Source: Gemmataceae bacterium (GTDB lineage: Bacteria; Planctomycetota; Planctomycetia; Gemmatales; Gemmataceae). Taken from it: a DNA stretch of 32,502 nt. The stretch spans positions 1 to 32,502 of the forward strand of contig DASXAN010000859.1 in the NCBI GenBank assembly GCA_036406755.1, written 5' to 3'. Numbering within the stretch: the first letter of the stretch is position 1; each line of letters begins with the position of its first letter. The notes beneath the pieces were generated by a model. It was not told the origin of the DNA. It made no database searches and saw nothing but the letters and a program-made list of their open reading frames with translations. Positions 444 to 28,200 of the stretch are shown here, piece after piece. Position numbers and translations under genes: made by a program.

Positions 444-451
444 CCCCGCCC

Positions 452-1051: not shown

Positions 1052-1288
1052 CTCGGTACCCGTGACGGCCGTCCGCCCGGCCGAGAGGCGGGAGAGTCGG
1101 CCCGAAAAAACTCGTTGCGGCGCCGCTAGGTCGGGGCCGCATCGGCTGACTGATCCATTAGACGGTACCGCATGCCGCCCGCCTTTCCAAGGGTCAGGGC
1201 CGGCCGGGGCCGCGGCGCCCTTCTGCCCGGTGGCAGCCCGGGGCGCCGTGCGCCCCTGTTGCCCGTGTCGCGCGAAGGGACCGTAACC

Positions 1289-11409: not shown

Positions 11410-14091
11410 TTACACGGCTTGGCGGACGACGAAGTACGGCTGGTGACACAGGTCCGCCCCGAGGCCGGGAAATAGCGTAGCCCGGCCGGGGCCGGCGCGC
11501 AGCTCGAAGAAGTACAGCAGCGGGTACGGCGAGCGGGTGTACTCGCCGGGCACGGTCGCCCGCCAACGGCCCCCATCGGCCTGCATGTCCGCGACGCGGT
11601 AATCCTCCGCCTGGTGGACGTGCCGGTAGTGCAGCCGGACTGCGGATGGCCGCTCCCCGACCGCATCCCGGCCGAGCAGCAGATCAATCATGACCGCCTC
11701 GCCAGGGCGGAACGGGGCCGGCGGGGTGTGCCGGCCGGCCGGCGGCGGCCGGCGGGGCGGTGCCAGGATCGCTTGCAGCACGGCCGGGTCGCCTGTCGCC
11801 GTGCCCGCATCGGCCCCGCGCTTCTCCATACGCTCGATGTCCTGGTCGATGGCCGGCAGCCGGTCCGACCAGTGGCCGCGGAGGTGGCGGACCAGGCCGA
11901 ACGTCAGGTCGCGGACGTAGACACCGTCCGCCCGTCGGGCCAGCTCCGCCCACGCGGCGCGGGCCGCCCGGTACGCCTTCACGGCTTCCTCCAGCGCCGC
12001 CCGGTCCCGGCCGCGTTCGTACACGGCGAAGAGCACGCCGGCCCGCAGCTTGTGGGCGAAGAAGAGGCCCAGGCCGCTCTGGATCGCCACGTCCGCGGCC
12101 AGCCGGCGGAACGCGGGGCCGTGCACATCCGGCGATTTGGCCTGCGCCTCGGCGAGTCGGGTGGCGGCGGATTCGGCCAAATCCTGGAGCCACTGGGCGA
12201 CTTCCAGCGGCGAATACCGGCCGTCGTGCTCGCCCTTGAGCAGCGCGGCGGCGAAGTCGTCCACACGGGAGAAGAGTGCCGGGTCCAGCGGGCTGACGGT
12301 GCCGAACCGCTTGGGCGACGGCGTGTCGCCGTACGGGTGGGGCACGGTCGCGTCCACGATCGACATATTGGTGTAGATTTCCGGCCAGTAGTTGTTGTTG
12401 GCCGCGGACGGCAGGTGGGCCGTGGTCACCAGCGACAGGATGCGGCTGGCGTGGGCCAGGGCGGCTTCGGCGGGTTCCGCGGCGGCACCGTACTCCACCC
12501 GCAGGTGGCGGCGCCAAACCTCCGGCTCGGCGTCGGGGCTGTAGAGCAGCCGGCCCCACAGGCGGTAGCCGTGGACGTACTTCTCCCAGTCTCCGGCCTT
12601 GGGCTGCAACGCCGGGTCCGCGTACCCGGTGCGGTGGCCGGGCAAGCCGGAGCCCTTGCGGCCCTTGAACGACAGTGGCTCGCACAGCTCCAGCCCAAGG
12701 CTGCCGCAGAAGCCCGACGCCCGCCCGTAGGCGGCGGCCATCGCCGGATCGCCCCAGAGCAAGAGCCGCTGCGTGCCCGGCCACATGCGGAAAAAGACGC
12801 CGTAGCGGCGGCCCTCGGCCAACAGGTCGCCGTAGCCGTAGCGGAGGAACCGCCGCGAGCCGGAACTTTGCGCGAAGAAGCCCTCGTCCTTGCGGCCGCG
12901 CGGCGGCAGCTCCAGGGGGCGGATGGCGGCCTGGTGGTAAGGCAACCCCATGTGCTCCGCCCAGAACTTGGGCGAGACGGTCACGGGCAGGCCGGTGGCC
13001 AGGGCCGCGTCGATCGTCGGCCGGTCGATGCCCTTGGCGTGCAGGTCGATCTCGACCGGCCGGCCGCACCCGGCGGCGCCGGCGAAGACGGTCTTCCAGA
13101 AGTCGTAGCTGCCTTCGGCCACGCCGCTCTCGCCGTGGATGCGGAAAGTCACGCCGGCGATGGCCGGGCACGCCCGCAGGACTTCCCGCAGCGCGTCGCG
13201 GCAGTAGGCGGCGTACGTTTCCGGGGTCAGGCCGGCGATGGTGTAGTTGGCGTCGGGGCTGTCGGTCCACCGGTAGGCGTGGGTCCACAGGCCGAGCTGG
13301 AAGTGCAGTCCGCGCTTGGCCGCCTCGTCGCTGACGAAGCGGAGCGTCTCCAGGTTCCTGACCCGCTCCGCGTCGGGCAGCCCGACGGCGCGGACGTTGG
13401 CGCCGGGCAGGGAGACGAAGAACGGGTAGGCGAAGTGGAAGTAGGCGTCGCGGATCTGCGTCGTGAAGTCGTAGCCCAGCCCGAGGGTCAGACTGAAGCG
13501 GTTGAACCGCTGGGCGGCGAGCATCGTCAGGTAGCGCTGCCAGAACGCCCGGTCGTTGAACCAGGGCTTGTCCTCGACCTCGCTGACAAACAGGCGGGCC
13601 ACGCCACGGATCGGGTTGGCCGGCTTCTCGGCGACGGGCCGTTGGACGTCAAGCCCCGCCAACGGCTGGTCGGCACACGCCACGCGGTCGGCCAGTTCCA
13701 GCAGCGCGTACGCCAGGCCGCGGGCGTCGCTGCCGCGGGCCAGGACGACCCTCCGCCCGGCCGCCGTCGAAGGCTGGAGGGAGAGTGCCTCGCGGGACTC
13801 GTGCGCGAAGTGTTCGGCCACGACGCAGATTTCGTCGGCCGTGACCTCACCGACGGTCCGGCAGACGCGGGCCGCGACACCCCGCGCCGCCAACGTCGCC
13901 CGCAAGTGGTCCAGGGCCCACCGGGCCGGGGCGACCGCCGCGACCTTGTCCTCCGGGTCGGCGACGAGCGCGACGCCCTTCCTGCCGTCACCGGGTCCGC
14001 CGGCCGCCACGCCTGTCCGGGTCAGCAGGCCCGCGCCGGCCAAGCCGGCGTGTCGGAGGAAACCCCGGCGGTCGATCGTGGGGTATGGCAT
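11410..14091 (-). CDS. Tat-signal secreted protein, glycoside-hydrolase-like (TIM-barrel-type) enzyme of unknown specificity
   Basis: Track ORF 11410..14301. The internal ATG 14091 gives MPYPTIDRRGFLRHAGLAGAGLL, a twin-arginine signal. ARGLAYALLELADR…NPIRGVARLF…RFNRFSLTLGLGYDF…HFQLGLWTHAYRW…TFRIHGESGV resembles the N-domain plus catalytic barrel of GH-like enzymes. The function is inferred from motif memory only. Confidence 0.75.
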   Translation of the reverse strand: MPYPTIDRRGFLRHAGLAGAGLLTRTGVAAGGPGDGRKGVALVADPEDKVAAVAPARWALDHLRATLAARGVAARVCRTVGEVTADEICVVAEHFAHESREALSLQPSTAAGRRVVLARGSDARGLAYALLELADRVACADQPLAGLDVQRPVAEKPANPIRGVARLFVSEVEDKPWFNDRAFWQRYLTMLAAQRFNRFSLTLGLGYDFTTQIRDAYFHFAYPFFVSLPGANVRAVGLPDAERVRNLETLRFVSDEAAKRGLHFQLGLWTHAYRWTDSPDANYTIAGLTPETYAAYCRDALREVLRACPAIAGVTFRIHGESGVAEGSYDFWKTVFAGAAGCGRPVEIDLHAKGIDRPTIDAALATGLPVTVSPKFWAEHMGLPYHQAAIRPLELPPRGRKDEGFFAQSSGSRRFLRYGYGDLLAEGRRYGVFFRMWPGTQRLLLWGDPAMAAAYGRASGFCGSLGLELCEPLSFKGRKGSGLPGHRTGYADPALQPKAGDWEKYVHGYRLWGRLLYSPDAEPEVWRRHLRVEYGAAAEPAEAALAHASRILSLVTTAHLPSAANNNYWPEIYTNMSIVDATVPHPYGDTPSPKRFGTVSPLDPALFSRVDDFAAALLKGEHDGRYSPLEVAQWLQDLAESAATRLAEAQAKSPDVHGPAFRRLAADVAIQSGLGLFFAHKLRAGVLFAVYERGRDRAALEEAVKAYRAARAAWAELARRADGVYVRDLTFGLVRHLRGHWSDRLPAIDQDIERMEKRGADAGTATGDPAVLQAILAPPRRPPPAGRHTPPAPFRPGEAVMIDLLLGRDAVGERPSAVRLHYRHVHQAEDYRVADMQADGGRWRATVPGEYTRSPYPLLYFFELRAGPGRATLFPGLGADLCHQPYFVVRQAV

Positions 14092-14350
14092 GGTGAGCTC
14101 TGACGGGATGAGAACTCGCTCGGCGCCTGGTGTTACACGGCGCGATTGGCACGGCGTCATTTTGCCCCGACGGATGGCCGGAACGAGCCGGCGACGGGCC
14201 ATGCGGCCAACGTACCGGACCACGGGGGCGGGGGCCAGCGGCCGGCCTGACCCGGCCGCCGTCAGCTGGCGGACGGCCGACCGGGTGCCGGTGCACCTCA
14301 ATAGGCGGTTTCAGGGAACCGCCCGCGCCCGAACAGCGATTTCGGTGCGC

Positions 14351-14791: not shown

Positions 14792-15691
14792 ATGAGATAC
14801 GTTCTCCTCACTCTCCTCGCCTTTTCGTGTTTCTCCTGGGCGCGGCCCGTCGGGAACTCGCCGTACGCGGATGAGATCCGAAGGTGGCGATCGGACCGGG
14901 AGACAAAGCTGCGCGCCGACAACGGCTGGCTGACGCTCGCCGGCCGCTACCCCCTCAAGGAAGGGCGGAACACGTTCGGCACCGGGAAAAGCAACGACGT
15001 CATCTTCCCGGCCGCACTCAAGGGGACCGGCCCCGAACGGTTGGGGACCATCGACGTGGACCCCAAGGCGAACAAGGTCACCCTGAAACTGGCGGACGGG
15101 GTGTCGATGGTGAGAGGCGGCAAGTCGTTTTCGGGCGAGCGGGCCCTCGGGACGGCCACCGACAAGCGGGACTGGGTCGGGCTGGGTCGCCTGAGCATGC
15201 ACGTCATCGAGCGCGACGGCAAGTACTTCTTGCGGTTGGCGGACAACGAGTCGCCGGTTCGCAAGAACTTTGCCGGGTGTGTTTGGTACCCGCCCGACGA
15301 GGCGTATCGGGTCGAAGCCAGGTTCGTGCCCTACCCCGAGGTCAAGACGCTGTCCATCGTGAACATCGTCGGCGAAGTGTCCAAGCAACCGTGCCCGGGG
15401 TATGCGGAATTCCAACTCCACGGCAAGGCCCACCGACTGGACGCGATCAAGGAAGGCGAGGGGTTGTTCTTCGTTTTTCGCGACGCCACGGCCGGCGACA
15501 CCACCTACAGGGCGGCGCGGTTTCTCGACGTCGAAAAGCAGCCGAAGGCGAACGAGACGTTTACTCTGGACTTCAACAAGGCCTACAACCCGCCGTGCGC
15601 CTTTTCCGCGTACACGACCTGTCCCCTGCCGCCGAAACAGAACATTCTGAAGACGCGAATCGAAGCCGGTGAGAAGTACGAGAAGCACTGA
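14792..15691 (+). CDS. DUF1684 domain-containing protein
   Basis: 299-aa ORF with the N-terminal signal MRYVLLTLLAFSCFSWA. The family-typical C-terminus is FRDATAGDTTY…FTLDFNKAYNPPCAFSAYTTCPLPPKQNILKTRIEAGEKYEK. The gene is visibly less GC-rich than its neighbours. Confidence 0.9.
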   Translation: MRYVLLTLLAFSCFSWARPVGNSPYADEIRRWRSDRETKLRADNGWLTLAGRYPLKEGRNTFGTGKSNDVIFPAALKGTGPERLGTIDVDPKANKVTLKLADGVSMVRGGKSFSGERALGTATDKRDWVGLGRLSMHVIERDGKYFLRLADNESPVRKNFAGCVWYPPDEAYRVEARFVPYPEVKTLSIVNIVGEVSKQPCPGYAEFQLHGKAHRLDAIKEGEGLFFVFRDATAGDTTYRAARFLDVEKQPKANETFTLDFNKAYNPPCAFSAYTTCPLPPKQNILKTRIEAGEKYEKH

Positions 15692-15734: not shown

Positions 15735-15764
15735 GACACCGGCGTGGCTCGCCGAGCCGGTGTC
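15735..15764. terminator. Hairpin between convergent genes (candidate bidirectional terminator)
   Basis: gacaccggc (15735-15743) pairs with gccggtgtc (15756-15764), a 9-bp stem with a 12-nt loop. It lies between the DUF1684 stop (15691) and the RHS stop (15771). Confidence 0.4.
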
Positions 15765-15770
15765 GGCACG

Positions 15771-18700
15771 TCACGGCAGGACGATGAACAGCCGTTGGAC
15801 GAACTGGTTGAGGTCGAGCAGGTCCACGTCGCCGTCGCCGTCGAAGTCGAACCCCGGGTTGTAGTTCGGCTGGCCGAGAATGCCGAACAGGGCGGGGACC
15901 AGGGGATTGAGGTCCAGCAGGTCCACGTCCTTGTCCCCGTCGATGTCCCCGAACAGCCGGTGGGTGTCGAACCGCCGGTCGCCGCCCGCCGCCCCGTCCC
16001 CATCCCCGTCCAGGGCCGTGCCGAGGGCGTCGGCCACCCCGGACGCGCGGACCGACAGCGTGTACAGGCCGTCGGCCAGCGACCCGAACTCCGTCCCCGC
16101 CCCGGAGAACGTCAGCGTCGCCACCGTCCGACCGTCGAGGACCGTGACTGTCGGGGTCAGCGTGATTGCCAGCCCGTCCGACCGGCGGAGGTCGAATGCG
16201 CCCGCCCCGAGGGTCACGACCTGGTTGAACGTCACGGCGAGACTGGTCACTCGGGACCGCTGGGCGGACCCGTCGTTGACCGTGATGCCTACCACGGTCG
16301 GCGGCCGGGCGACGACGGTCGTGGTCGCCTGGGCCGCGGCCGGGGTCGGCTGGCGGTTGCCGACGTTGTCGATGGCCTCCGTGTAGAAGGCGTAGGTGTG
16401 CCCGTCCTGGGCCGTGTACACCGCCGACGTGGCCGCGGTGGCTTGCCAGAGGGTGAACGGGCCGCCGTTGTCCGAGACGAACACGGCGTAGGCGGCCACC
16501 CCGGACCCGCCGGCGTCGTCCTGCCCGGACCACCGCACCAGGAACGAGGCGGTGTCGGTGACGGCGGGCAGGGCCTGGACGCTGCTGGTCGGCCGGCCGG
16601 CGTCCAGGGTGTTGCGGGCTTCCTTCGCCGGGTCGGTCCCGGCGGCGGGGTTGTGCGGATCGACCTGGTTGGTGTCGATCGGGTCGTTGCCGTCGAAGAC
16701 GATGCGGGCGACGTTGCGGAGCGGGGTGCCGGTCGGCAGCCCGGCCTTCGGCCGGACGGTGTAGCCGAGGAACCCGATGCCGCGGCCGGTGCCGTCCTCG
16801 GGCGGCAGGAAGCCGGTGAGGGCGTCGGGGGGCAAGCCGGTGGCCGGGTCGATCGAGTCGAAGACGGCGGTGAGCCGGCCGGTCTGCGGGTCGAGGTCCA
16901 GCTCGATCTCGACCTGGAACGTGCGGCCGTTTTGCGTCAGCGGCACCGTAGTCCGGTAGTGCCGGCTACCCTCGGGGACGGTGAGGATCACGTCGCCGAA
17001 GCCGATTTGCGTCCAGGCGAAGGTGTCCCAGTCGAGGTTGGCGTCGAGCTGGTCGGTGACGATGACGCGGTGGGCCGGGGCGGTGGCGTCGGCCTCGTTC
17101 TCGAACTCGACGCGGTAGGGGACGACGCCGTCGGCCGCGATGTAGTGGGCCGGGCCGAAGCCGGCCGGGCCGGTCTTCTCGTTGGGGTCGATCGCTCGGA
17201 CGAGCCGGCTTGCGCCAGAAGTGACGCTCCCGGAGATGGTGCCGGACGGAGCGACCGGGGCCGGCATCGGGGGAATCGCGGGTCCACTGTCTGCGCCCGG
17301 GGAGCCGCCCCATATTCCGATGCTCAAACCGAACCCCGGGCCCGACGAGGCAGCCGCGGCCATGGACGCCACCGCATCATCAGGCGGGAACTGGGCCATG
17401 GCGGCGTCCACGAGGTCCTGGAGTCCCGCGTCGTCCGCGGCTGCCGCCGCGGCGGCCACGAGGTCCGACAGATCCGCTTCGTCCGCGGCCCGCTCCACGG
17501 CGGCCACGAGTTCCGCGAGATTCGCCTCGTTGGCGGCAGCATCCGCGGCGGCGGCGGCGGCCGCCGCCAGGGTCGCCAAAGCGGCCTCTCGCTCCATTGT
17601 GATCGCCGCGCGCACGTCTTGTTCCATGTGGTTATTAGGCCATAGGCCTGTCGGATCGACCCGGTTCACCGGGTCGTTCGATACGTACCGGTACCAATTG
17701 ACATCACCGCCGCTCAGGCCGATCGGGTCATGAGCCGTGAAGCGACCCTGGGCGGGGTCGTACCACCGCTCGCGCATGAACGACAGGCCCTGGCCCCCGT
17801 TCATCACGCCGAATTGACCCACATAGGTGAACGGGTTGGCAACGGTCCCGGTCGCGGTCAGCGACTCCCCGAACGGGAGGTAGCGGTAAGTGTTCAGGAC
17901 GACGCCCGCGGCGCCGGTGAGCTGGGCCGTGTTGCCGTTGCCGTCGAAGTCGAAATAGGCGGCTCCGCCGGCCGGCTCGACGCGGCTCGTCAGGCCCAGA
18001 CCGACCACGTAGTCGGCGATCAGGCTGCCGTTCCCGGCATACTCACCGACCACGTTGCCCATGCCGAACGGGTCGATCAGATAGTCGGTCCGCTGACCGT
18101 CGTGGACGGTGGCGGTGCGGTCGCCAAGGGCGTCGAACAGATAGCTCCAGGTGCCGCCCGGCGCGGTCACGCCGGTCAAACGATTCAGCGCGTCGTAGGC
18201 GTAGGTCGTGGTCCCGCCGCCGTCGGTGCGTGAGACCAGGTTGCCGTCGAGGTCGTAGCCGAGTGTCGCCGTGCCGATCTGCGTGTACTGGTTGAGGTTG
18301 TTGGTCACGTAATTCGTGGTCACGCCGTTGAGGACCGTGCGGACCCGGTTGCCGACCGCGTCGTAGGCGTACTGCAAATCCTGGTTGGGGATCACGGCCG
18401 GGTTGTTCGACGTGAAGACCGCCCGTGTCAGTTCGCCGATGCCGTCGCAGGCGTAGTCCCACACGCCGTCGAGCGTCGTCATCTGCGTCCGCCGGCCAAG
18501 GGCGTCGTAGACGTAATCGAACCGCGAGTTGACCGTGCCGTCGGGGGCCCTGTTGATCAGGTGCTCGAGCTGGCCGGCCGCGTCGTGCTGGTACTCGGTG
18601 GAGGTGCCGTTGCCCTTGTCCTCGTGGTCGAGCCGGCCGGCGGGGTCGTAGTGGTAGTGGGCGATCAGAGCGCCGGCCCCGTCGCGGAGGAACTCGAGCC

Positions 18701-21700
18701 GGCCGGCGGCGTCGTAGAAGTAGGTGGTCGTGAACCCGTCCTGATCGACCATGCTGGTGCGGCGGCCGTTCTGGTAGGTGTATTGCAGGAATCGGCCGTC
18801 GGGGTAGGTGACCTTGGTGACCCGGTCGGGGTTGAGCGGGTCGAGATACTCCAGCACCGTCGCCCCGGTCGCGTCGACGGCCAGGTCCACGTTGCCGCGG
18901 GCGTTGTAGTGGTACTGCACGAACGAGCCGTCGGGCAAGGCTCGCCGCTCCAGCCGGCCGTCGCCGTTGACCTGGTAATCCACCAGCTGGCCGCGGCGAT
19001 TTGTCCACGCGTCGGGCTCGCCGCGGGCGTCGGGACTGAAGCGGTCGGCGCTGCCGTCGGCGTAGGTGATCGAGGTCAGGTTGCCGCGGCTGTCGTAGCC
19101 GTAGGTCAGCGGGTTACCGCGGGCGTCGGTAAGGGATGCGAGCCGGTTGAAGTCGGCGGTGTAGCCGAAGGCCGTGACCTGGCCCAGCGGGTTGGTGGCG
19201 CGGACCACATTCCCACGGCCGTCGTATTGGTACAGGTAGTTCTGCCCGAGGGCGTCGGTGACGCTGGTCAGGTTGAAGTCGTTGTCGTGGCCGAAGAGGG
19301 TGCGGCGGCCCAGTGCGTCCTCCACGGCGGCCACTTGCGCCTGGTGGTCGAAGAAGAACTTCGTGGCGTTGCCCAGGGCGTCGGTTGCCGTCACCCGGCC
19401 GGCCGAGTCGTAGGTGAAGCTGACCCGCTCGGCGTTGTTGTCCCGCGCCATCGAGTCCAGCCGGCCGTGGGTGTCGTAGGTGAAGAACGCGTGGGTGTTG
19501 TCGGGGTACGCGATCGACAGCAGGCCGTGTGCGCTGGCCCCGGCGGCGGTGCTGTAGGTGTAGTGCGTCGTCTGGCCGTCGATGCCCTGGACGGCCAACA
19601 GGTGCTCGCCGGCGGGGTCGTAGGTGTAGACCACGGTGCGGCCGGCCTGGTCGGTCAGGCCGGTGATCCGGCCCGCGGTGTACGTGATCTGCAGGAACTG
19701 GCCGGCGGAGTGGGTCAGGCGGGTCAGTTGTGTGCCGGTCCAGGTGGCGGTGACGCGGTTGCCGTTGGGGTCTTCGACGTAGTCCACCCGGCCGTCGCTG
19801 CGGAAGCGGGTCACCAGGCCGTCCGGCTCGCGGAGGACGAAGGCCCCGCCGACCAACCCCGACAGCGTGGCGTGGTCGCCGGCCTGGGCGAAGTAGCGGC
19901 CGGCGAAGCGGGCGTCCGGCTCGAACCGGCGGTCGTGGCCGTCCAGCCCCGAGACGACCGCGGTGCCGTCCGGCTCCAACGTCACGGACCGGTCCCAGCC
20001 GTCGGCCCACGCCCAGCCGCGGCCGAAGGGCCCTTGCTCGTACCGGCCGACGGTGCTGGTGGAGAAGACGCGGGTCAACCGGATCGGTAAGCCGGGCGCA
20101 TCGACCTGGAGGTCGGTGGCGGCGGCCAGGGTCGGCACCGGACTGAAGCCGATCGCCTGCTCCACCTCGAACCGCCACAGGCTGTCCACGTCCTTGACCG
20201 TCTCCCCGAGCCGCCCGAGGTACTGGGCGTTGTCGCTGAGCATGGTTTGGAAGTCGCCCCAGGTGGGGCCGACCTGGGCGACGAGGTTGCCGTAGATCGG
20301 CGCCCAGGCCTCGGCCGAGATGTCGGGCGGGCGGAGCGTGTCCTGCAACGAGGGCCAGTCGATCGGCGTGGTACTCGCGTTGAATACTGATAGGGAGGAG
20401 TGCAAGAAGCCGTCGCCGAAGTCCAGGGGCCCACCCAACCCGACGAAATAGACGGGGACACGAACGTGTTCGCCCGGTTGGAGCAGGCCGGGGGTGGCCC
20501 CGGAGGCGTTGATCTGCACCGTGTCGCTGAAGCCGCCGGGCTTCGCCGAGGTCCGCGCCCCCGGCAGCAACCGGCTTTCGTCGAGTGTGAACAGCGCCTT
20601 GTTCGAGCCGTGCAGGGCCAGGAGCGGGGCGGGCATGGGGGCGTCGCCGTTGTTGCCGTACTCGACGTAGAGGCGTTCGACAACGCCGAAGTAAAAGACC
20701 TGTCCGGGGACAATCAGGTGGACCTCGAGGTCCGGGTGGCCGCCCGCGACAACCCGGAAGGCGCCGGCCAGCACGGCCGCCCCGCCGGCGGGGCGGCGGA
20801 CTCGCACCGAGTAAGTCCCCGGCGGGACGCTCCCGGCGGCGAAGTTGGCCGTCAGGTGGGTGGGCGTGTCGATCGACACGGCGTCCGCCGGGTAGGTCGC
20901 CCCCCCGGAATCCGACAGCTCGACGATCGTCGTCCGGTCGAAGCCGGCGCCGGTCAGGGTGAGGGTCATGCCCGTGCCGTTGCCGAGGTGGGTTGGTGAC
21001 GTGTTGGTCAGGAAAAGGGCGCCGGCGTCGGCGGTCAGCGTGTACGCGTCGGCGGAGAAGACGGACTGGCTGTAGAGCAGGACGTACCAGGCGCCCGGCG
21101 CCGCACTCGGCACGGACAGCAGTTGGTCCCCCGACGCCGCGGTGGCGCTGAACTGGAAATCACCCCGGGTCGGCGGCGTGCCGAACTTCGCGTACAGCTC
21201 GTTGCGGTTGAAGTTGGCCTGGTCATCGAGGACGACGCGGAGCTGCTGGCCGGCGGGCACGTCCACGCGGAAGAGTCGCGCCTGACCGCTGCCGATCAGG
21301 TTGCCGGCAAAGGGCGTCCCCAGAGTCAGAACGGTCTGGCTCGTTTCCAGGAGGCGGAAGGCGTAACTGCCGTCCTGGTTCGCCCCTGCGGTCACCTCCA
21401 GCGTGTACGTCCCGTCCGCCGGCAGGGTGACCGGGCTGGAGTCGCCGGTCAGGCCGGTGAAGCCGACGAAGTCGTTCGGCCCGGTCAGCTTGAACTGGAG
21501 CGTCGTCGGCGCGGCGTTGACCCAGTCGAACGTCACCTGTTGGTTGGCGGCGGCCGTGAAGGTCCAGTGATCGATGCCGAACGGGGTTTCGAGGGTGCCG
21601 TGCGTCTCCTGGTTGAGCTGAACCGGCCGCGTGCTCACGCTCGCATTCCAGAGGGCGAGCACGTAGTTACCCTGGTCGCCCCCCGACGCGGCCCGCACCT

Positions 21701-24032
21701 GAATGCGGTAGGTGCCGTCGGCGGGCAGGACGACAGCCGGGAGCGTCACGATCTGCCCGGACGCGTTGCTGAAGCCGGAAGCGACGAGCGCGCCGGAGGG
21801 GTTCAGCAGGCGGACGTCGGCAAGGTTCAGCGTGGGCGGCAGCGCCGCCGGCGCGCCCGTGGTGCCGGGGTTGGCCACGACGGTGACGGACTGGCCCGCC
21901 CTGCCGAAGAACGTCCACTCGTCCACTTCGCCCGTCGCCCCGATGGTGCCGGCGGTCGCCGAATTCAGGGCGATCGGGCCGCCGTCGAGAGCCCGCGTGA
22001 CGGCGCCGCCGACGACCGTCCCGTCGACCTGCGTCTGCCGGGCGTACACGTGGAACGAGTTGAGGTCCAGCGTCGCCCCGGCCGGCACGATCAGGCGGTT
22101 GACGTACAGTGCCTCCGGGCCGGCCCCGGGGGCGTTGTCGGCGTCGTCCACCAGGCGGACGTAGGTGCCGCTCTGGAACGGGGACGAGCCGCTGAGCGAC
22201 AGCGACTCGAAGGCGAAATTGCCGGCGAACCCGGCTGCGGTGCCGCCCCGGTCCTCGCCCAGGACCTCGAGGAGCTGCGGGCTGGCGGCAGTGCCGGGGC
22301 CCGTGAAGCGGACGGTCGCCTGCGGGGCAAACAGGTCGGCATTGGTGGTTGACCCCAGCAGGCTGCCGAGGTTTGACCCGTTCGTGCCGCTGATGGCAAA
22401 CGTCCCCGTCGGCTGGCCGGTGAGGGCGCCGGGGCCGTTGTTCCGGAGGGCCATGCCGGCAACGGTCAACGTGGCGTTGCCGCCCACGTCGAGGACGCCG
22501 GTGTTAATAAAGGTCTGCCCCGTTCCGGCCTGGCCGATCGTGAAGCTACCGCCTGTGAACGTGATGGTGCCACTGTTGGCGTGCGCCGCTCCGGGCTTGC
22601 TGACGGTCAGCGTGGTCTGCCCATCGAGCTGGGCGGTGAACATGCCCTGGTTGTCCAGCTGCGCGGCCAGGAAGCGGCTGCCGCTCGGCAAGACGCGGAT
22701 GGTCCCGCCCACGGCGTTGGTCAAGGTGCCGCTCGTGACCGACAACTGGGTGGTGAAGTTCTGCTGGCCGGTCAGCTCGATCGTGCCCTGGTTGGCGAAG
22801 CCGCTGGCCACCGTCGAGATCCCGTTCACCCGCAGGGTGCCGCCCGGCGCGTTGCCGAACGCGCCGTTCAGCGTGCCGGATTGCAGCAGGAGCGTGCCCT
22901 GATTGAGCAGGGGGGCGTTGAAGGCGCCTCCCGACAGCGTCACCGACTTGCCCGCCGGATTGGTGAACGTCCCCGGCGAGGTGACGGTCACGTTGCTGAG
23001 CTGTAGCGAGGCCAGGCCGTTGCTGAAGTCCCCGCCGAAGTCGGCCGTCGAATTCGTCAGTGACAGGGTGCCCGCCCCGCTGATCGTGCCGGCGTTGTGA
23101 TGGAACGGGCTGTTACTGATGCTAACGGTGCGCCCGCCGCCGATGGTCACGGTGCCGGTGTTGGTGAAGGACGGCCCGGTGCCGGACTGGAGGATGAAGA
23201 CGTCACCGCCCGTCACGCTGATCGTGCCGCTGTTGGCGTAGACGGCCGAGGGCTTGTTGAGGGTCAGCCGGCTCTGCACCTGCAGGGCGCCGCGGTTGTC
23301 GAGCGAGGCCTCCACGATGTGTAAGACGCCGGACGTGGTCACGGTCCGGATCATCCCGCCCGCCGCGTTGAGCAACGTGCCGCTACTAACCGTGAGCTGC
23401 GAACTGAAGCCCCCGTCGCCGGTCAGCTCGAGCGTGCCCTGGTTGGTGAAGCCTTGGGCCACCGTCAGGTGCGAGCGGTCCGCCCGGAGGAGGGAGCCGG
23501 GCGCGGTGCCGACCACGCCGTTGAGCGTGCTGTTCCCCTGAGATAGCAGCGTTCCCCGGTTGTCCAGGGCCACGTTCAGGGTGCCGTTGACCAGCTCCGT
23601 CGCGGCCGAGTTGGTCAGCGTACCGGCGCCGTTCAGCGTGCTCCCGGTGAGCCGCAGCGTGCCACCGGCAACCGTAAGGCCGGCGTCGACCTGGGACGTG
23701 GCGGCGCCGAGGGCAAATGTCCCCGCCGTGATCCGGAGGGCCGCGGCACTGGCCACGCTGCGGACCGTGACGCTGCCCGAGGACGCGACGGTGACGCCGG
23801 CGAAGGCACTGCCAATCTGGGCGTCGTCCGCCGCTCCCGGCAGCACGTCGCCGGCCCAGTTCACCGGGTCGTTCCAGGTCGTGCCGGTGCCCGCGGGGCC
23901 GCCGTCCCAGGCGACCACGGCCGGCGCCAACCGGGTTTCCAGGGGTTCCAGCACCAGCGGCCGCCAACGCCGGCGCGGCTGCCGACTGCCGGGGAGGCGC
24001 TTCAAGAATGGCGGGACGACGGGGTGGCGCAC
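15771..24032 (-). CDS. Giant secreted RHS/YD-repeat protein (2753 aa). Order: N-terminal beta-helix modules, three pre-peptidase-C-terminal-like domains, an Ig-like region, the YD shell with a canonical C-terminal core motif, then a 623-aa tail ending in dockerin-like repeats
   Basis: GTG start at 24032 with AAGGAG (reverse complement of 24040-24045) 7 nt upstream. The N-terminus is RRRWRPLVLEPLETRLAPAV. A ~230-aa module is duplicated (…GFTNQGTLELTGDGGFSSQLTVSSGTLLNAAGGMIRTV / …GFANQGTIELTGQQNFTTQLSVTSGTLTNAVGGTIRVL). PPC-like units include GEVDEWTFFGRAGQSV and GIDHWTFTAAANQQV. There are many YD repeats (YTYDPAGEHL, FTYDSAGRV, YQYDGRGNV…). The core end reads RERWYDPAQGRFTAHDPIGLSGGDVNWYRYVSNDPVNRVDPTGL. 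Confidence 0.9.
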   Translation of the reverse strand: MRHPVVPPFLKRLPGSRQPRRRWRPLVLEPLETRLAPAVVAWDGGPAGTGTTWNDPVNWAGDVLPGAADDAQIGSAFAGVTVASSGSVTVRSVASAAALRITAGTFALGAATSQVDAGLTVAGGTLRLTGSTLNGAGTLTNSAATELVNGTLNVALDNRGTLLSQGNSTLNGVVGTAPGSLLRADRSHLTVAQGFTNQGTLELTGDGGFSSQLTVSSGTLLNAAGGMIRTVTTSGVLHIVEASLDNRGALQVQSRLTLNKPSAVYANSGTISVTGGDVFILQSGTGPSFTNTGTVTIGGGRTVSISNSPFHHNAGTISGAGTLSLTNSTADFGGDFSNGLASLQLSNVTVTSPGTFTNPAGKSVTLSGGAFNAPLLNQGTLLLQSGTLNGAFGNAPGGTLRVNGISTVASGFANQGTIELTGQQNFTTQLSVTSGTLTNAVGGTIRVLPSGSRFLAAQLDNQGMFTAQLDGQTTLTVSKPGAAHANSGTITFTGGSFTIGQAGTGQTFINTGVLDVGGNATLTVAGMALRNNGPGALTGQPTGTFAISGTNGSNLGSLLGSTTNADLFAPQATVRFTGPGTAASPQLLEVLGEDRGGTAAGFAGNFAFESLSLSGSSPFQSGTYVRLVDDADNAPGAGPEALYVNRLIVPAGATLDLNSFHVYARQTQVDGTVVGGAVTRALDGGPIALNSATAGTIGATGEVDEWTFFGRAGQSVTVVANPGTTGAPAALPPTLNLADVRLLNPSGALVASGFSNASGQIVTLPAVVLPADGTYRIQVRAASGGDQGNYVLALWNASVSTRPVQLNQETHGTLETPFGIDHWTFTAAANQQVTFDWVNAAPTTLQFKLTGPNDFVGFTGLTGDSSPVTLPADGTYTLEVTAGANQDGSYAFRLLETSQTVLTLGTPFAGNLIGSGQARLFRVDVPAGQQLRVVLDDQANFNRNELYAKFGTPPTRGDFQFSATAASGDQLLSVPSAAPGAWYVLLYSQSVFSADAYTLTADAGALFLTNTSPTHLGNGTGMTLTLTGAGFDRTTIVELSDSGGATYPADAVSIDTPTHLTANFAAGSVPPGTYSVRVRRPAGGAAVLAGAFRVVAGGHPDLEVHLIVPGQVFYFGVVERLYVEYGNNGDAPMPAPLLALHGSNKALFTLDESRLLPGARTSAKPGGFSDTVQINASGATPGLLQPGEHVRVPVYFVGLGGPLDFGDGFLHSSLSVFNASTTPIDWPSLQDTLRPPDISAEAWAPIYGNLVAQVGPTWGDFQTMLSDNAQYLGRLGETVKDVDSLWRFEVEQAIGFSPVPTLAAATDLQVDAPGLPIRLTRVFSTSTVGRYEQGPFGRGWAWADGWDRSVTLEPDGTAVVSGLDGHDRRFEPDARFAGRYFAQAGDHATLSGLVGGAFVLREPDGLVTRFRSDGRVDYVEDPNGNRVTATWTGTQLTRLTHSAGQFLQITYTAGRITGLTDQAGRTVVYTYDPAGEHLLAVQGIDGQTTHYTYSTAAGASAHGLLSIAYPDNTHAFFTYDTHGRLDSMARDNNAERVSFTYDSAGRVTATDALGNATKFFFDHQAQVAAVEDALGRRTLFGHDNDFNLTSVTDALGQNYLYQYDGRGNVVRATNPLGQVTAFGYTADFNRLASLTDARGNPLTYGYDSRGNLTSITYADGSADRFSPDARGEPDAWTNRRGQLVDYQVNGDGRLERRALPDGSFVQYHYNARGNVDLAVDATGATVLEYLDPLNPDRVTKVTYPDGRFLQYTYQNGRRTSMVDQDGFTTTYFYDAAGRLEFLRDGAGALIAHYHYDPAGRLDHEDKGNGTSTEYQHDAAGQLEHLINRAPDGTVNSRFDYVYDALGRRTQMTTLDGVWDYACDGIGELTRAVFTSNNPAVIPNQDLQYAYDAVGNRVRTVLNGVTTNYVTNNLNQYTQIGTATLGYDLDGNLVSRTDGGGTTTYAYDALNRLTGVTAPGGTWSYLFDALGDRTATVHDGQRTDYLIDPFGMGNVVGEYAGNGSLIADYVVGLGLTSRVEPAGGAAYFDFDGNGNTAQLTGAAGVVLNTYRYLPFGESLTATGTVANPFTYVGQFGVMNGGQGLSFMRERWYDPAQGRFTAHDPIGLSGGDVNWYRYVSNDPVNRVDPTGLWPNNHMEQDVRAAITMEREAALATLAAAAAAAADAAANEANLAELVAAVERAADEADLSDLVAAAAAAADDAGLQDLVDAAMAQFPPDDAVASMAAAASSGPGFGLSIGIWGGSPGADSGPAIPPMPAPVAPSGTISGSVTSGASRLVRAIDPNEKTGPAGFGPAHYIAADGVVPYRVEFENEADATAPAHRVIVTDQLDANLDWDTFAWTQIGFGDVILTVPEGSRHYRTTVPLTQNGRTFQVEIELDLDPQTGRLTAVFDSIDPATGLPPDALTGFLPPEDGTGRGIGFLGYTVRPKAGLPTGTPLRNVARIVFDGNDPIDTNQVDPHNPAAGTDPAKEARNTLDAGRPTSSVQALPAVTDTASFLVRWSGQDDAGGSGVAAYAVFVSDNGGPFTLWQATAATSAVYTAQDGHTYAFYTEAIDNVGNRQPTPAAAQATTTVVARPPTVVGITVNDGSAQRSRVTSLAVTFNQVVTLGAGAFDLRRSDGLAITLTPTVTVLDGRTVATLTFSGAGTEFGSLADGLYTLSVRASGVADALGTALDGDGDGAAGGDRRFDTHRLFGDIDGDKDVDLLDLNPLVPALFGILGQPNYNPGFDFDGDGDVDLLDLNQFVQRLFIVLP
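15774..15950 (-). other. Dockerin-like / EF-hand Ca-binding repeat pair at the extreme C-terminus of the RHS giant
   Basis: GDIDGDKDVDLLDLNPLVPALFG…FDFDGDGDVDLLDLNQFVQRLFIVLP contains two DxDxDGxxDxxD-type loops. Confidence 0.7.
17388..17531 (-). repeat. Three tandem 48-nt (16-aa) Ala/acidic repeats inside the RHS tail
   Basis: The units are NEANLAELVAAVERAA / DEADLSDLVAAAAAAA / DDAGLQDLVDAAMAQF. The anchor ccacgag recurs at 17408, 17456 and 17504, exactly 48 nt apart. Confidence 0.8.
17643..20048 (-). other. RHS/YD-repeat shell region (about aa 1329-2130) ending in the DPxGL autoproteolysis-type motif
   Basis: Runs from GRYEQGPFGRGWAWADGWDRS (codon top at 20048) to DPTGL (Leu codon 17643-17645). 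Confidence 0.8.
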
Positions 24033-24156: not shown

Positions 24157-24204
24157 GCGACGCCGGCGCCCGAAACACGTCAGGCGCACGTCGGTTTTCT
24201 TCGG
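24157..24204 (-). promoter_or_regulatory. Copy A of a conserved 48-nt element, 124 nt upstream of the RHS giant start
   Basis: Plus strand: gcgacgccggcgcccgaaacacgtcaggcgcacgtcggttttcttcgg. It overlaps the last 7 codons and the stop of the 24180..24980 gene. It shares blocks GCGACGC(1-7), GAAAC(16-20), CGTCAG(22-27) and a T-run (from position 39 or 40 to 45) with copies B and C. Confidence 0.6.
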
Positions 24205-24980
24205 ACGGCCCGGCAACCCGCCGCTCCGGCCAGACTGCCGATGCCGGTCAGGACGAGCGTCAGGCCGCCCGGCGTGGGGGCGGCGAACGCCGCCGGCGGG
24301 ACGGTCAACACGCTGGAGTAGCCGTAGAGGTGGTGTTGCTCGGTGCGCGGCGCATCATTCTGGGAAACCCAGCCGCTGTCGGAAATGTTGCGGGCGGAGC
24401 CGAAAGTGACGAACGCCCCGCCGCCCAGCGGCTCGAAGGCGGTGCCGTCCTGCAGGGTGCCCGTCCACACGATCACCTCGCCGCCGACGTCAACGCCCGA
24501 CTCCGTCACGGTGATGGGGAAGCTGCCGGGGCCGCTCACCCACAAAGTCCCGGCGGAGGGCGCCACCAAACCGCCGTCGAGGCGGTACAGGGGCGGGGAG
24601 CCGGCCACCCGCGGGAGCCGGTCCACCGCGTCCACGGTCGGGGTGGACGCGAGGGCCTGCCAGGTGACGGGGGTGCCGAAGTAGGTGTCGATCCCCGCCA
24701 CCACGGCCAGGTTGGTAATGAACTGATCGTAGTCGGCGATGTCGGCCGACCGGGCGTCCCGGGTGGCGCTGGACAGGAACGCGATCCGGAACTGGTCGCC
24801 GGGGTGCAGGCCGGCCGGGACCAACATCAGGTCCGCCCGGCCGGGCGACGCGGACCAGAGGCCCACGACCAACGCGCCCAGGGCGACCGCCGTCCACGTC
24901 CTGACGGCCCTGTCGCCGGCGTGCCGGAACGGCCGGTCGGAGCGGACGGAAGCCAATGGGCCGCACGGCAGAAGCACCAT
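24180..24980 (-). CDS. Small secreted or anchored protein with a PEP-CTERM-like but non-canonical C-terminal tail
   Basis: Track ORF 24180..25046, which starts at GTG. ATG 24980 is preferred because GGAAGG lies 4 nt upstream. There is a hydrophobic leader RTWTAVALGALVVGLWSASPGRA, and a body segment FRIAFLSSATRDARSADIADYDQFITNLA recalls PEP-CTERM cargo proteins. The tail is TPGGLTLVLTGIGSLAGAAGCRAVRRKPTCA, a hydrophobic helix plus basic cluster without a PEP motif. Confidence 0.6.
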   Translation of the reverse strand: MVLLPCGPLASVRSDRPFRHAGDRAVRTWTAVALGALVVGLWSASPGRADLMLVPAGLHPGDQFRIAFLSSATRDARSADIADYDQFITNLAVVAGIDTYFGTPVTWQALASTPTVDAVDRLPRVAGSPPLYRLDGGLVAPSAGTLWVSGPGSFPITVTESGVDVGGEVIVWTGTLQDGTAFEPLGGGAFVTFGSARNISDSGWVSQNDAPRTEQHHLYGYSSVLTVPPAAFAAPTPGGLTLVLTGIGSLAGAAGCRAVRRKPTCA

Positions 24981-25085
24981 GATGCCTTCCGGTCGAGTGA
25001 CGAAGGTGTTCCCGTCGCCTTCAGGGCCCTCCGGGGACGGGTTCACCGCGGAGGCCGCAGAGACAGTGCGTGGTCCGCCTGATAT

Positions 25086-25258: not shown

Positions 25259-28200
25259 TCACTTCGCCGTCGGGGCCGGCAGCGCCGCCTCGCGCGCCTT
25301 TAGCTTGTCCTCCAGGTCCGCGACCAGTTTGCTGAAGTCATCGCGGTCGCGGAGTACGGCGAAGGCGCGGTCATTCTTCAGGCGAGCCATCCAGTTGCGG
25401 ATCGCGACGAGGGCCCAGCCGCTCTTCGGATTGGTGATCCAGTCCAAGTCGGCAGCGATGGCTCGCTTGAGCCAGGCCATGGCCCGGTCGGCTTCGGCGG
25501 CGTCCTCGACCGGTGGAGCGGATTTCGGGTCGGCCGCCCGAATCACGGCGGCCGTCACCGCCCGCATGCGGGCCGCCGTGTAGAGGCTGTCGGCGTCGGT
25601 GCGGTTGAGCCGCTCCCACATCTCGGCGGTCGCCCGGCAGCCGGCGGCGTCCTTGGTGGTTTCAAAGTGGCGCAGCCGATAGTTCATCAGGGCTGAAATC
25701 GACTTCGAATTGACGTCTTTGCCGGCCGCATGCTTGACGTACTCGTCGATCAGTGGCACCGCCTCCGCGCCGCGCCGGAGGTTCATCAAGATGATGACAA
25801 CGGCGTCCATGCTGTCGAGGGTGTCGGGGTGGTCGGGGCCGAACGTGCTCCGCCGGGCCGCGAGGACCTCTTCCGCGAGTTTCAGAGCGACCGAGTACCG
25901 GCGGGCGGCCGCGTGGATGGACGCGAGATCGTCCTTGGTGGCGAGGGTGTCGCGGTGCCGGGGTCCGAGTTTGGCGGTCCGAATCGCCAGGACTTCTTCG
26001 GCGGTCTTGACCGCCTCGGCGTCGCGGCCGGCCCGGCTGTACGCGACGGCAAGCTGGCTCGCGGCACGGAGGGTGGCGGGGGCCTCCGGGCCGAACTTCG
26101 CCCTGTGCAGCACGATCAGCTCTTCGCCAAGTTGGATCGCCTCGGGGTGCCGGTCGAGGTGGGAACAGCACCGGGCCAGGTTCCCCAGGGCCGCGAGCAG
26201 CAACGCGGAGGGGTGGTCGGGGCCGTCCCTGGCCTGACACAGCGCAAACAGGTCGTCGCGGATCGTGAGCGCGCCGGCTTGCCGGATCGGAGTGACGTAG
26301 TTCGCGTTAGGGGCGGCCCGGCTCGCGGGGCGGTCGGGGGCGTCAGAGCCGGCCTTCCCCCGTTCTAGCGCCCGCCGTTCTTCGAGGACCAGGAGCCCTT
26401 CGGCGTGCCGACCCAGGCTGGCGTAGGTGCTCGCCAGGTTAAACACGCTATCGAGCGTGTTCTTGTGGTCGCGGCCGTCCTTGGCCTTGTGCCGCGACAC
26501 CAGCTCCAGGCGGAGCTTCAGAGCGTCTTCGTGTTGGCGGGCAAAGGTGTAGCGCGACGCCAAAATGTTCATGCGCGCGAGGGTGTCGGGATGATCGCGG
26601 CCGAGCTTGGCACTTTGCACCGTCAGCACTTGTTCTTCGAGTCGTAACGCTTCCGCGTGCCGGCCGAGGGAGCGGTACGTCTCGGCCAGACGGTCCATGG
26701 TCCAGACCGCGGTAGGGTGGTCCGGGCCGAGCTTGGCCCGGACCACCGCCAGGCTATCCTCGTAAAGTTTGGCGGCCTCGGCCCCGCGGTCGAGGGAGTA
26801 GTATGCGTGAGCGAGGTTAGTCATGCACCGGGCCGTGTCGGGGTGGTCGGCGCCCCGGTGCGTCACGTAGAGCCTGCGGGCCGCCTCGAATTGCTCCGCC
26901 GCGGCCTTGAAGGTTTCCGGCCTGCCCTGCAGGAAGAACGATTGACCGACCGTCATCCGCAGCCGCGCCTCCGTGAGCGGCTGCTTCTTGAAACTGGTTT
27001 CCACGAACGGCAGCGCCTGTTCGATGGCCCGCCGCAGGGTCGCCTGCTGACCCAGGCCGCCGTTGTTCACCGGCCGCATGGCGGCCAGGATCCGCCCCTC
27101 CACGAAGTCGAGCACCGCCCGGGCCTCGGCGTCGCTGGCCTCGGCGGCCTCTTTCGCCGTCTGCTCGGCGGCCGCCGCCGCGAGCGCTTTCTGTCCGGCC
27201 TTCACGGCGTCGTCGCGGGCGAGGGCGGCCGCGTCCCGCTCCCGGCGGGCGTGGACCAGCCCCAGCGTCGTGCCGACGATGCCGCCGACGAGCACCACGG
27301 CCACCGCGGCCGCGGCCAGCACGGGGCCCCGGTGCCGGCGGGCGAACTTCCGCAGCCGGTACGCCAGCGACGGCGGGCCGGCCAGCACCGGCTCGTCGGC
27401 CAGAAACCGCTCCAGGTCCGCGGCGAGTTCGTTGGCCGTCCCGTACCGCCGCCCGCGGTCCTTCTCCAGGCACTTCATCACCACCCAGTCGAGGTCGCCG
27501 CGGAGGGCGGCCGTCCGTTTGTCCGGCCCGGCGTGCCTCACGGCCGCCAGGCTCGGCCGGGGCGGGTCCACCTCCCGGATCATCCGCAGGACCTCGGAGA
27601 GCGGCAGGGTGGTCAGATCCTTGCGGGGGAACGGCACGCTGCCGGTGAGCAGTTCGTACAGGACCACGCCGAGGCCGTAAACGTCGCTGCGGGTGTCCGT
27701 GTCGGGGTTCGTCAGGTCCGCCTGCTCGGGCGACATGTACTCCAGGGTGCCGATGAACGAGCCGGCCTCCGTGTCGATACTTTGCTCGGTCAGCCGCGGG
27801 CCGGTCGCCTTGGCGATGCCGAAGTCGATCACCTTCGGGACCGGCCGGCCGTCCACGTCGGCGACCAAGATGTTGGACGGCTTGATGTCGCGGTGAATGA
27901 CGCCCTTCTGGTGGGCGTGCTGCACCGCTCGACAGACGGGGAGGAACAGCCCCAGCCGCTGGCGCGGGGTGAGGGCGTTGGCATCGCAGTAGGCGGTGAC
28001 GGGGACGCCGTCGATGTACTCCATGACGAAGTACGGGCGGCCCGCGGGCCCGCCCGTGTCGGATTCGGGCCCGCCGACGCCGGCGTCGAGGATCTTGGCG
28101 ATGTTCGGGTGGTCCATCAGGGCCAGGGCCTGCCGCTCCTGCTCGAACCGGGCCAGCAGGCGGGCGGAGTCGTGGCCGGGGCGGACCACCTTGAGGGCGA

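Follow-up and report, generated by a model that had tools for sequence, protein, structure and literature searches.

The subject of this analysis is a gene on the reverse strand (15771..24032) of a 32,502-nucleotide stretch of DNA from a Gemmataceae bacterium (contig DASXAN010000859.1), referred to here as the window. The gene encodes a giant Rhs/YD-shell protein of 2753 amino acids, and comparison with its relatives defines a new Rhs/YD-shell family, in which an internal hypervariable cassette follows the Rhs core and is itself followed by a conserved external adhesin module. The combination of an Rhs shell with such a tail is not a one-off and occurs in thousands of proteins, and the window protein is a member of a large, Planctomycetota-centred and apparently undescribed Rhs subfamily.

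The original prediction, made from the letters of the window, had described the 623 residues after the DPxGL motif as one adhesin-like tail that takes the place of a toxin. There is indeed no short terminal toxin, but the first ~150 of these residues are a hypervariable cassette. The adhesin part is an added, conserved module and not a swapped-in tail, and the absence of cargo is not established. The related claim that the tail is too large and too beta-rich for encapsulation holds for residues 2281-2753, an all-beta array, but not for residues 2131-2280, a cassette of cargo size. It had also been asked whether orthologues conserve or swap the tail at the DPTGL junction, and they do both: the sequence is swapped over residues 2131-2280 and conserved from residue 2281.

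Shell, cleavage site and cassette

The gene is an unbroken frame with a GTG start, supported by Pfam and NCBIfam matches and by a G+C content at third codon positions (GC3) of ~0.9 along its entire length, in a window of ~71% G+C. Residues 1304-2130 (17643..20123) form a complete Rhs/YD cocoon, as had been predicted, comprising the DUF6531 plug region, the YD repeats and the Rhs-associated core. RHS_repeat is matched in eight stretches (Pfam E 3e-49), with a weak DUF6531 match at residues 1304-1370. A search of PDB sequences with the shell retrieved Rhs effectors (E 9e-45) and a bacterial TLP (2e-29). In AlphaFold2 (AF2) models the predicted local distance difference test score (pLDDT) of the shell region is mostly >90, and the best Foldseek match of this model in the PDB is the complete Rhs cocoon of RhsA (7q97, E 6e-48, ~1000 columns), followed at lower ranks by the bacterial TLP 9ifo (2e-42), teneurins (~1e-34) and TcB-TcC (~1e-27). 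Repeat matches, predicted structure and Foldseek agree on the complete cocoon that marks Rhs/YD polymorphic toxins. The closest relative of the shell is a protein from a Gemmataceae metagenome-assembled genome, with 69% identity.

The Rhs-associated core, at residues 2051-2130 (17643..17882), is covered by NCBIfam Rhs_assc_core (TIGR03696, E 5e-19), and contains R2089, D2102 (in DPIG) and D2126 (in DPTG). DPIGL begins at residue 2102 and DPTGL at residue 2126; the core ends at L2130, leaving the 623 residues that were originally counted. In BiTLP and TcC, the two aspartates of a bipartite DPxG...DPxG motif and an upstream arginine have been shown experimentally to perform autoproteolysis (PMC13018210). 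The window protein has the same core features as the Rhs toxins, with a PxxxxDPxGL end, a catalytic arginine and two aspartates. Of the 57 family members compared, all retain R2089 and G2129, 54 retain D2102 and 56 retain D2126. Because R2089, D2102 and D2126 are conserved in the family, self-cleavage after L2130 is likely.

The cassette, at residues 2131-2280 (17193..17642), was delimited by comparison with relatives; it begins with Ala/acidic helical repeats (~2131-2230) and continues as a disordered linker rich in Gly and Pro (~2231-2280). Both parts had been recognized in the original prediction, and both are supported: the first 100 residues after L2130 include 40 Ala and 18 Asp or Glu, versus three Lys or Arg, and are modelled by AF2 as helices at low confidence, and the linker is disordered in the model (pLDDT <40). 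When modelled together with the shell, the cassette has a pLDDT of 22-35.

In a BLAST alignment with the relative P0122, identity breaks off at residue 2131 and returns at residue 2281. This pattern is general in the family, since only 16 of 10,011 pairs (0.2%) are similar in the cassette, versus 99.6% in the preceding 85 residues of the core and 99.9% in the following 200 residues of the module. Over 142 proteins, cassette length ranges from 78 to 419 residues, with a median of 135.5. In composition, too, the cassette stands out as an island within one gene, with a GC3 of 0.79 in the window protein versus 0.93 in the upstream and 0.97 in the downstream flank; GC3 falls below that of the flanks in 51 of 54 loci (among L004-L083; median -0.17, Wilcoxon p = 3e-10). 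Classical rhs genes of E. coli combine a G+C-rich core with an A+T-rich tip. The pair similarities, the sharp breakpoints and the GC3 dip all mark a polymorphic segment directly after the core, and by position and size residues 2131-2280 are the equivalent of an Rhs C-terminal toxin.

The contents of the relatives' cassettes are diverse. A transmembrane-like (TM-like) hydrophobic stretch of 19 residues is present in 34% of cassettes, versus 0% of shell and 0.7% of module control segments. In a Pfam scan of 113 cassettes, phospholipase A2 families account for five of the family matches (~4%), with one glycine-zipper and one VWD domain in addition. Opitutus P0131 and Syntrophorhabdus L023 are examples of TM-like cassettes, and P0146, L018 and L041 of phospholipase A2-like ones.

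The conserved module and the extent of the family

An AF2 model of the tail, built with an alignment of 50 relatives (mean pLDDT 83.5), contains four confident domains in tail residues 151-623 (residues 2281-2753 of the protein). The first is a DUF7619 domain at residues 2281-2485 (16578..17192; Pfam E 1e-16, pLDDT >90), which accounts for the beta-sandwich-like domain of the original prediction and begins with 'IDPNEK'. The D-P-N of this start does not vary, and 125 of 137 members have S, A or P at position -2. A 2025 survey places DUF7619 among CnaA-like intramolecular-isopeptide domains and assigns it a Lys/Asp/Asn triad (PMC12617251), and the putative triad of the window protein is K2286 (the K of DPNEK), D2327 and N2440. 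Over the 57 aligned rows, K-D-N is complete in 31; of the 33 rows with the lysine, 31 have the aspartate and the asparagine as well, and rows without the lysine usually lack the other two. This covariation lends support to the isopeptide triad of the window protein being functional, and with the profile match and a CnaA/DEv-IgG-like fold, the presence of the three residues places the domain in DUF7619.

The second domain is the FN3-like segment that had been noted previously, at residues 2486-2575 (16308..16577; 'FLVRWSGQDDAGGSGVAAY...YAFYTEAIDNVGN'), which is recognizable in the alignment, is a confident beta-sandwich in the AF2 model and is annotated as PF00041 in homologues. DUF7619 and the FN3-like segment are conserved jointly as one module, with 46-71% identity across 20 members (alignment A1). 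The variable distal tail of the window protein begins with an Ig-like (Big_5-type) domain at residues 2576-2695 (15948..16307), for which the Pfam match is below the cut-off (E 3e-4) and the AF2 beta strands are confident. It ends with a dockerin-like duplicated calcium-binding loop-helix pair at residues 2696-2753 (15774..15947; DIDGDKDVDLLDL / DFDGDGDVDLLDL). The proposed dockerin-like pair has two DxDGDxDVDLLDL repeats and two modelled helices (tail residues 575-584 and 608-616); the Dockerin_1 match (E 4e-4) scores 20.8 bits against a Pfam cut-off of 22.9 bits. Foldseek comparison of the tail with the PDB retrieved the isopeptide-bonded Gram-positive adhesins and pilins AgI/II C123, SpaD, GBS80 and Cna, along with the cohesin-dockerin scaffoldin complexes 3kcp and 4fl4, and no toxin fold was found among these matches.

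Of the 8,000 candidates scored in a search of 5.8 billion protein clusters with the tail, 342 matched at E <= 0.001, and the only part that these matches have in common is the ~300-residue DUF7619 and FN3-like module (45-76% identity). Relatives that bear Rhs repeats follow one layout: a core with DPxGL, then ~90-170 unrelated residues ending in a Gly/Pro linker, then the module from D-P-N. Variable domains follow the module, including dockerin, PKD, Ig, MBG, cadherin, FG-GAP and cohesin, and the tail as measured from DPN is 472 residues long in the window protein and 183-3367 in relatives (median 607). Cohesin (PF00963) is present in some family tails (P0059, P0147) and dockerin (PF00404) in many; cohesin-dockerin pairing between family proteins, or with a scaffold, is a possibility.

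A module profile made from alignment A1 detected 330 relatives in GTDB species-representative genomes. Among the 80 best loci of these 330, 67 are from Planctomycetota, and the end of an Rhs core lies 94-304 residues upstream of the module in 70; five others are too short upstream (70 of 75 testable). Core, cassette and module share one frame without stops in 62 of the 80, and three of the remaining negative loci keep RHS repeats with a degenerate core that lacks DPxGL. An Rhs-agnostic scan of 1.84 billion representatives with the module profile gave 7,492 cluster representatives at E ≤ 1e-30, and among the testable library proteins from the top matches, an Rhs core lies 83-236 residues upstream (median 134) in 47 of 61. 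The 14 coreless proteins (within P0246-P0343, e.g. P0251 and P0310) carry the DUF7619 and FN3-like module after a Gly/Pro linker, and some of these giants have a lipase-like or other enzyme-like domain just upstream of the linker or module, which suggests that the DUF7619 module generally follows effector-like domains. Cultured carriers of the family include Opitutus terrae, Singulisphaera sp. Ch08 and Syntrophorhabdus aromaticivorans UI.

Family entries in databases are named 'RHS repeat-associated core domain-containing protein', and at least some 'stand-alone DUF7619 proteins', namely those at L001 (P0004) and L003 (P0050), are the C-terminal pieces of frameshifted Rhs genes in long-read metagenome assemblies. 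At L003, a 2676-residue Rhs open reading frame (ORF) ends two nucleotides before the DUF7619 ORF, which is in a different frame. The idea that DUF7619 is a generic C-terminal module of non-Rhs Ig/MBG/PKD proteins was rejected, since DPN lies near the N-terminus of the fragments concerned, with those domains C-terminal to it, since frameshifted Rhs genes lie upstream where the context can be read, and since an Rhs core is present in the 70 of 75 testable loci. In the literature that was searched, no connection of DUF7619 or isopeptide domains with Rhs proteins was found, nothing on domains downstream of the Rhs variable region and nothing on Rhs systems of Planctomycetota.

A topological model and its alternatives

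The arrangement that we consider probable, although by a narrow preponderance, is one in which the self-cleaved cassette lies in the shell, the linker leads out and the tail serves externally as a force-bearing adhesin or anchor, i.e. a teneurin-like topology with cleavage retained. The protein would be secreted or located at the surface, with an N-terminal stalk made of a repetitive region and four pre-peptidase C-terminal (PPC) domains. The Rhs core would cleave itself after L2130, and the cassette would remain within the shell as cargo or plug. The flexible Gly/Pro linker would then exit the shell, like the C-terminus of metazoan teneurins, and outside it the isopeptide-locked tail could act as a force-bearing tether that anchors the complex (through the dockerin) or binds a target. 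The cassette would thus be coupled physically to an external handle, through which its withdrawal and delivery might be possible.

The threaded topology, with the cassette inside and the linker exiting, is suggested by the sizes of the parts. The shell of teneurin-2 encloses the 126 residues that come after the Rhs core, and the chain then exits through a gap in the wall to external domains (PMC5851990). The C-terminal domains of bacterial TLPs average ~15 kDa, which the authors suggest may be limited by a cavity of ~44,000 cubic angstroms (PMC13018210). Because its ~150 residues (family median 135) match such sizes, the cassette could be either enclosed cargo or an internal linker; the 472-residue tail, in turn, cannot be inside the shell because it is a string of folded domains far above the ~15 kDa capacity. 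The teneurin-like arrangement that had been raised as one reading of the protein is a plausible one.

Several observations weigh against this model. Most of the 113 cassettes scanned with Pfam lack a recognizable toxin domain, and no nuclease, deaminase or ADP-ribosyltransferase (ART) was detected among them. The window cassette has no Pfam match at E<=10 and no homologue at E ≤ 1e-3 among 5.8e9 clusters; this acidic, Ala-rich segment of low complexity has a pLDDT of 22-35, does not resemble a toxin and may be mere filler. The module is not specific to Rhs proteins, as 14 of the 61 module-bearing giants have no Rhs core. DPxGL is absent from L016, L063 and L082, which keep RHS repeats and the DUF7619 module with a degenerate core, and which may be natural uncleaved, teneurin-like variants. 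All bacterial Rhs/TLP shells solved so far are closed, with no exit (PMC13018210), and neither a signal peptide nor a secretion system was identified for the window protein.

Immunity genes are a further difficulty. A downstream immunity gene follows almost every TLP ORF (PMC13018210). In the window there is no immunity-type ORF downstream: as the original prediction stated, a convergent DUF1684 gene comes next (14792..15691, forward strand; Pfam E 2e-44), and its stop codon and that of the Rhs gene are 79 nucleotides apart. The Rhs transcription unit ends at the DUF1684 gene, with no space left for an immunity gene, and the small reverse-strand ORFs around the Rhs stop codon, which overlap either the Rhs or the DUF1684 gene, are Arg-rich, off-frame artefacts. 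Among 55 relatives with enough downstream sequence, 30 have a co-directional ORF near the stop codon (of 60-250 residues in 19) and 25 have none, in a crude, GC3-filtered survey that gives an upper bound only. The candidates differ from one another without any relationship, and ten of the best have unrelated annotations or none, with no immunity-type family found among these ten. The lack of a consistent immunity gene in the relatives is atypical for polymorphic toxins. An internal cassette between conserved flanks could be exchanged by double crossover without an accompanying immunity gene, which would be sensible only if cassettes are harmless to the producer, for example by acting externally on membranes, or are not toxins. 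Because the cassettes of relatives look mainly membrane-directed (TM-like stretches, phospholipase A2), the missing linked immunity gene would fit the first of these cases.

A doubtful extension of the model with an enclosed cassette and an external tail, which may be called 'tethered cargo', is that target binding by the tail, together with tension, pulls the cassette from the shell onto the target surface or membrane. It is similarly questionable whether, in such a scheme, the effectors (phospholipases, membrane-inserting peptides) would act externally on non-kin, with linked immunity unneeded and cassettes swapped by recombination in the flanks. If true, 'tethered cargo' would provide, for the first time in bacteria, a precedent for the exit from the shell through which teneurins became receptors.

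The most serious rival, which we nevertheless regard as unlikely, is that the protein is purely an adhesin or scaffold, with the YD shell as a platform, as in metazoan teneurins, and the ~150 residues as an unconstrained, non-toxic linker or filler. The window cassette itself, of low complexity, acidic, modelled at low confidence and without a homologue or toxin signature, is what such a protein might be expected to contain, and the missing downstream immunity gene, the disordered appearance of several relatives' cassettes (e.g. at L070), the loss of DPxGL in three members and a cassette length in line with that of the teneurin internal linker point the same way. However, the autoprotease residues are nearly invariant in the family, whereas teneurins lost them on becoming adhesins (PMC13018210), and filler would need no size range that fits the capacity of the shell. 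The compositional island with its sharp, recombination-like boundaries is of the kind seen in classical Rhs toxin tips, and the cassettes that are phospholipase A2-like, along with the one third that are TM-like, resemble the membrane-damaging C-terminal domain of BiTLP.

It is improbable that the protein is a precursor cut twice, with a second processing event near the linker or at the [S/A/P]-x-DPN boundary that would yield a closed capsule with ~15 kDa of cargo and a free or separately anchored adhesin. This would reconcile the family with known bacterial shells, which have no exit, and would make use of the disordered Gly/Pro linker that precedes DPN in almost all members. The invariant D-P-N and the preference for S, A or P at position -2 (125 of 137) could be read as a processing site, but the DUF7619 fold natively starts with DPN, with the isopeptide lysine two residues later, and the conservation of DPN is explained structurally. 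Neither a protease motif nor a partner protease was found, and the chain must still get out before being cut. Two further explanations are effectively refuted. A canonical Rhs toxin in which the entire 623-residue tail is encapsulated cargo has only the position after DPxGL in its favour; 472 of the residues are modelled with confidence as four domains of beta or dockerin type that match adhesins and pilins, the module is conserved and not polymorphic, and tails in relatives reach 3367 residues in the face of a shell capacity of ~15 kDa. A frameshift, fusion or assembly artefact that links an Rhs gene with an adhesin gene unrelated to it would be in keeping with the database 'stand-alone DUF7619 proteins' that do stem from frameshifted long-read assemblies. 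In the window, however, the coding signal is unbroken over the junction, and 62 independent loci have the same stop-free, in-frame junction, as do isolate genomes; the tail is real.

A known toxin in the first 150 residues after the core, which the original prediction had named as evidence against itself, was also looked for and rejected, as the cassette gave no Pfam match and no confident model fold, and a homology search with the cassette alone returned nothing. The hidden Markov model search that had been recommended for the tail returned DUF7619 and the sub-threshold Big_5 and Dockerin_1 matches, and no known toxin in these 150 residues.

Neighbouring features and relation to known systems

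The N-terminal part of the window protein begins with an Arg-rich leader (residues 1-40, 23913..24032), in which a 'LEPLETRLAPA' motif can be read and in which no hydrophobic signal-peptide core and no Pfam match were detected. Of 84 full-length relatives, 18 have the same LExRxxP/L motif at their head, and this leader may serve as a signal for export or processing that is specific to planctomycetes. Residues 41-640 (22113..23912) are a repetitive region rich in Gly, Thr, Ser and Asn, with no Pfam family even at E<=10, which from its composition is probably a beta-helix-like stalk. Residues 641-1290 (20163..22112) include four PPC domains (four stretches, Pfam E 6e-18) and Ig-like domains, with weak matches to Kre9_KNH and CarboxypepD_reg.

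The original prediction was also correct in finding no PAAR, VgrG or type VI secretion system (T6SS) context: no such family was detected among the 20 window ORFs scanned, and no link to a delivery system, whether PAAR/VgrG/T6SS or a Sec signal with a wall anchor, was found for the window protein. There is no second Rhs core or module copy (orphan cassette) within the window. The 79-nucleotide spacer between the Rhs and DUF1684 genes contains an inverted repeat (15735-15764; GACACCGGC ... GCCGGTGTC) with a 9-bp stem, a 12-nucleotide loop and no T-run; a terminator scan of the spacer gave no canonical terminator and did not call this hairpin.

Just upstream of the Rhs gene is a Ser/Thr kinase with tetratricopeptide repeats (TPR; 25259-28513, reverse strand), and a region for an extracytoplasmic function (ECF)-type sigma factor is located at ~452-960 (reverse strand). 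At L001, L002 and L003, too, family genes have kinase/TPR and ECF sigma genes beside them, which may be due to chance, given the kinase-rich genomes of planctomycetes. The window encodes a second giant surface protein (1172-7327, forward strand; 2051 residues) with ten autotransporter passenger-associated (PATR) repeats and a C-terminal PEP-CTERM sorting motif. Four ORFs, all on the reverse strand, have no Pfam family: 9256-11394 (712 residues), 11410-14301 (963 residues), 24180-25046 (288 residues) and 28581-30881 (766 residues). GC3 is 0.87-0.93 in three of them, with 28581-30881 falling under the 0.85 cut-off.

The family departs in three ways from the closed-capsule rules for Rhs and Tc proteins, namely a terminal polymorphic toxin and a paired immunity gene: the cassette is internal, between conserved flanks; a large folded adhesin module must be outside; and immunity genes are not consistently linked. 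It dominates in Planctomycetota, the giant surface proteins of which are almost unstudied. If the chain does thread out, the family bears on how cargo leaves an Rhs cocoon, on the origin of the teneurin exit topology and on isopeptide domains in diderm bacteria. If it does not, the family remains an architecturally new class of Rhs proteins of considerable size, and its recognition would correct the 'stand-alone DUF7619' database entries.

In comparison with the Rhs polymorphic toxins (the T6SS effectors RhsA, Tse5 and Tse15, and the Gram-positive WapA), the window protein shares the complete YD cocoon, the DPxGL core with a catalytic arginine and two aspartates, and a cargo-sized, hypervariable and compositionally distinct segment right after the cleavage motif. 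However, this segment is not C-terminal, as 472 residues of conserved or folded domains follow it, there is no PAAR/VgrG/T6SS context or adjacent immunity gene in the window, and the cassettes of the family are without the usual nuclease, deaminase or ART domains. The TcB-TcC cocoons of Tc toxins (Foldseek ~1e-27) also combine a YD cocoon, an aspartyl autoprotease and an encapsulated hypervariable region; the window shell differs from them in being a single chain with no beta-propeller gate and no TcA partner, and in that the protein continues past the hypervariable region.

The bacterial TLPs (BiTLP, PDB 9ifo/9pt5; PMC13018210) resemble the window protein in their surface-type YD shell, N-terminal adhesion domains, bipartite DPxG...DPxG autoprotease with a conserved arginine, and polymorphic ~15 kDa segment after the core, which is often hydrophobic or membrane-active; the window shell is similar to theirs both in sequence (E 2e-29) and in fold (E 2e-42). 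However, Pfam scans of the window protein gave no FN-plug or NHL, and Foldseek ranks 9ifo below the Rhs effectors. The C-terminal domain of a TLP ends the protein and an immunity gene follows almost all TLPs, neither of which applies here; that domain is also fully enclosed in a shell without an opening, and TLPs have not been reported from Planctomycetota (PMC13018210). The DUF7619/CLIPPER-type CnaA-like isopeptide domains of fibrillar adhesins (PMC12617251) are matched by the module in profile (Pfam E 1e-16), covarying triad and fold, but there they are tandem stalk repeats, versus a single copy straight after the Rhs cassette and linker here, and the survey of these domains does not mention an association of DUF7619 with Rhs shells (PMC12617251).

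Metazoan teneurins lack the DPxG autoprotease (PMC13018210), which the window protein keeps, their internal linker is conserved whereas the cassette is hypervariable, and their external ABD and Tox-GHH stand in place of the DUF7619, FN3-like, Ig-like and dockerin-like domains. They nevertheless parallel the proposed topology, with a YD shell, an internal segment of ~126 residues and external folded domains (PMC5851990), against a cassette of ~135-150 residues in the family described here, and with an adhesion-type function of the external parts.

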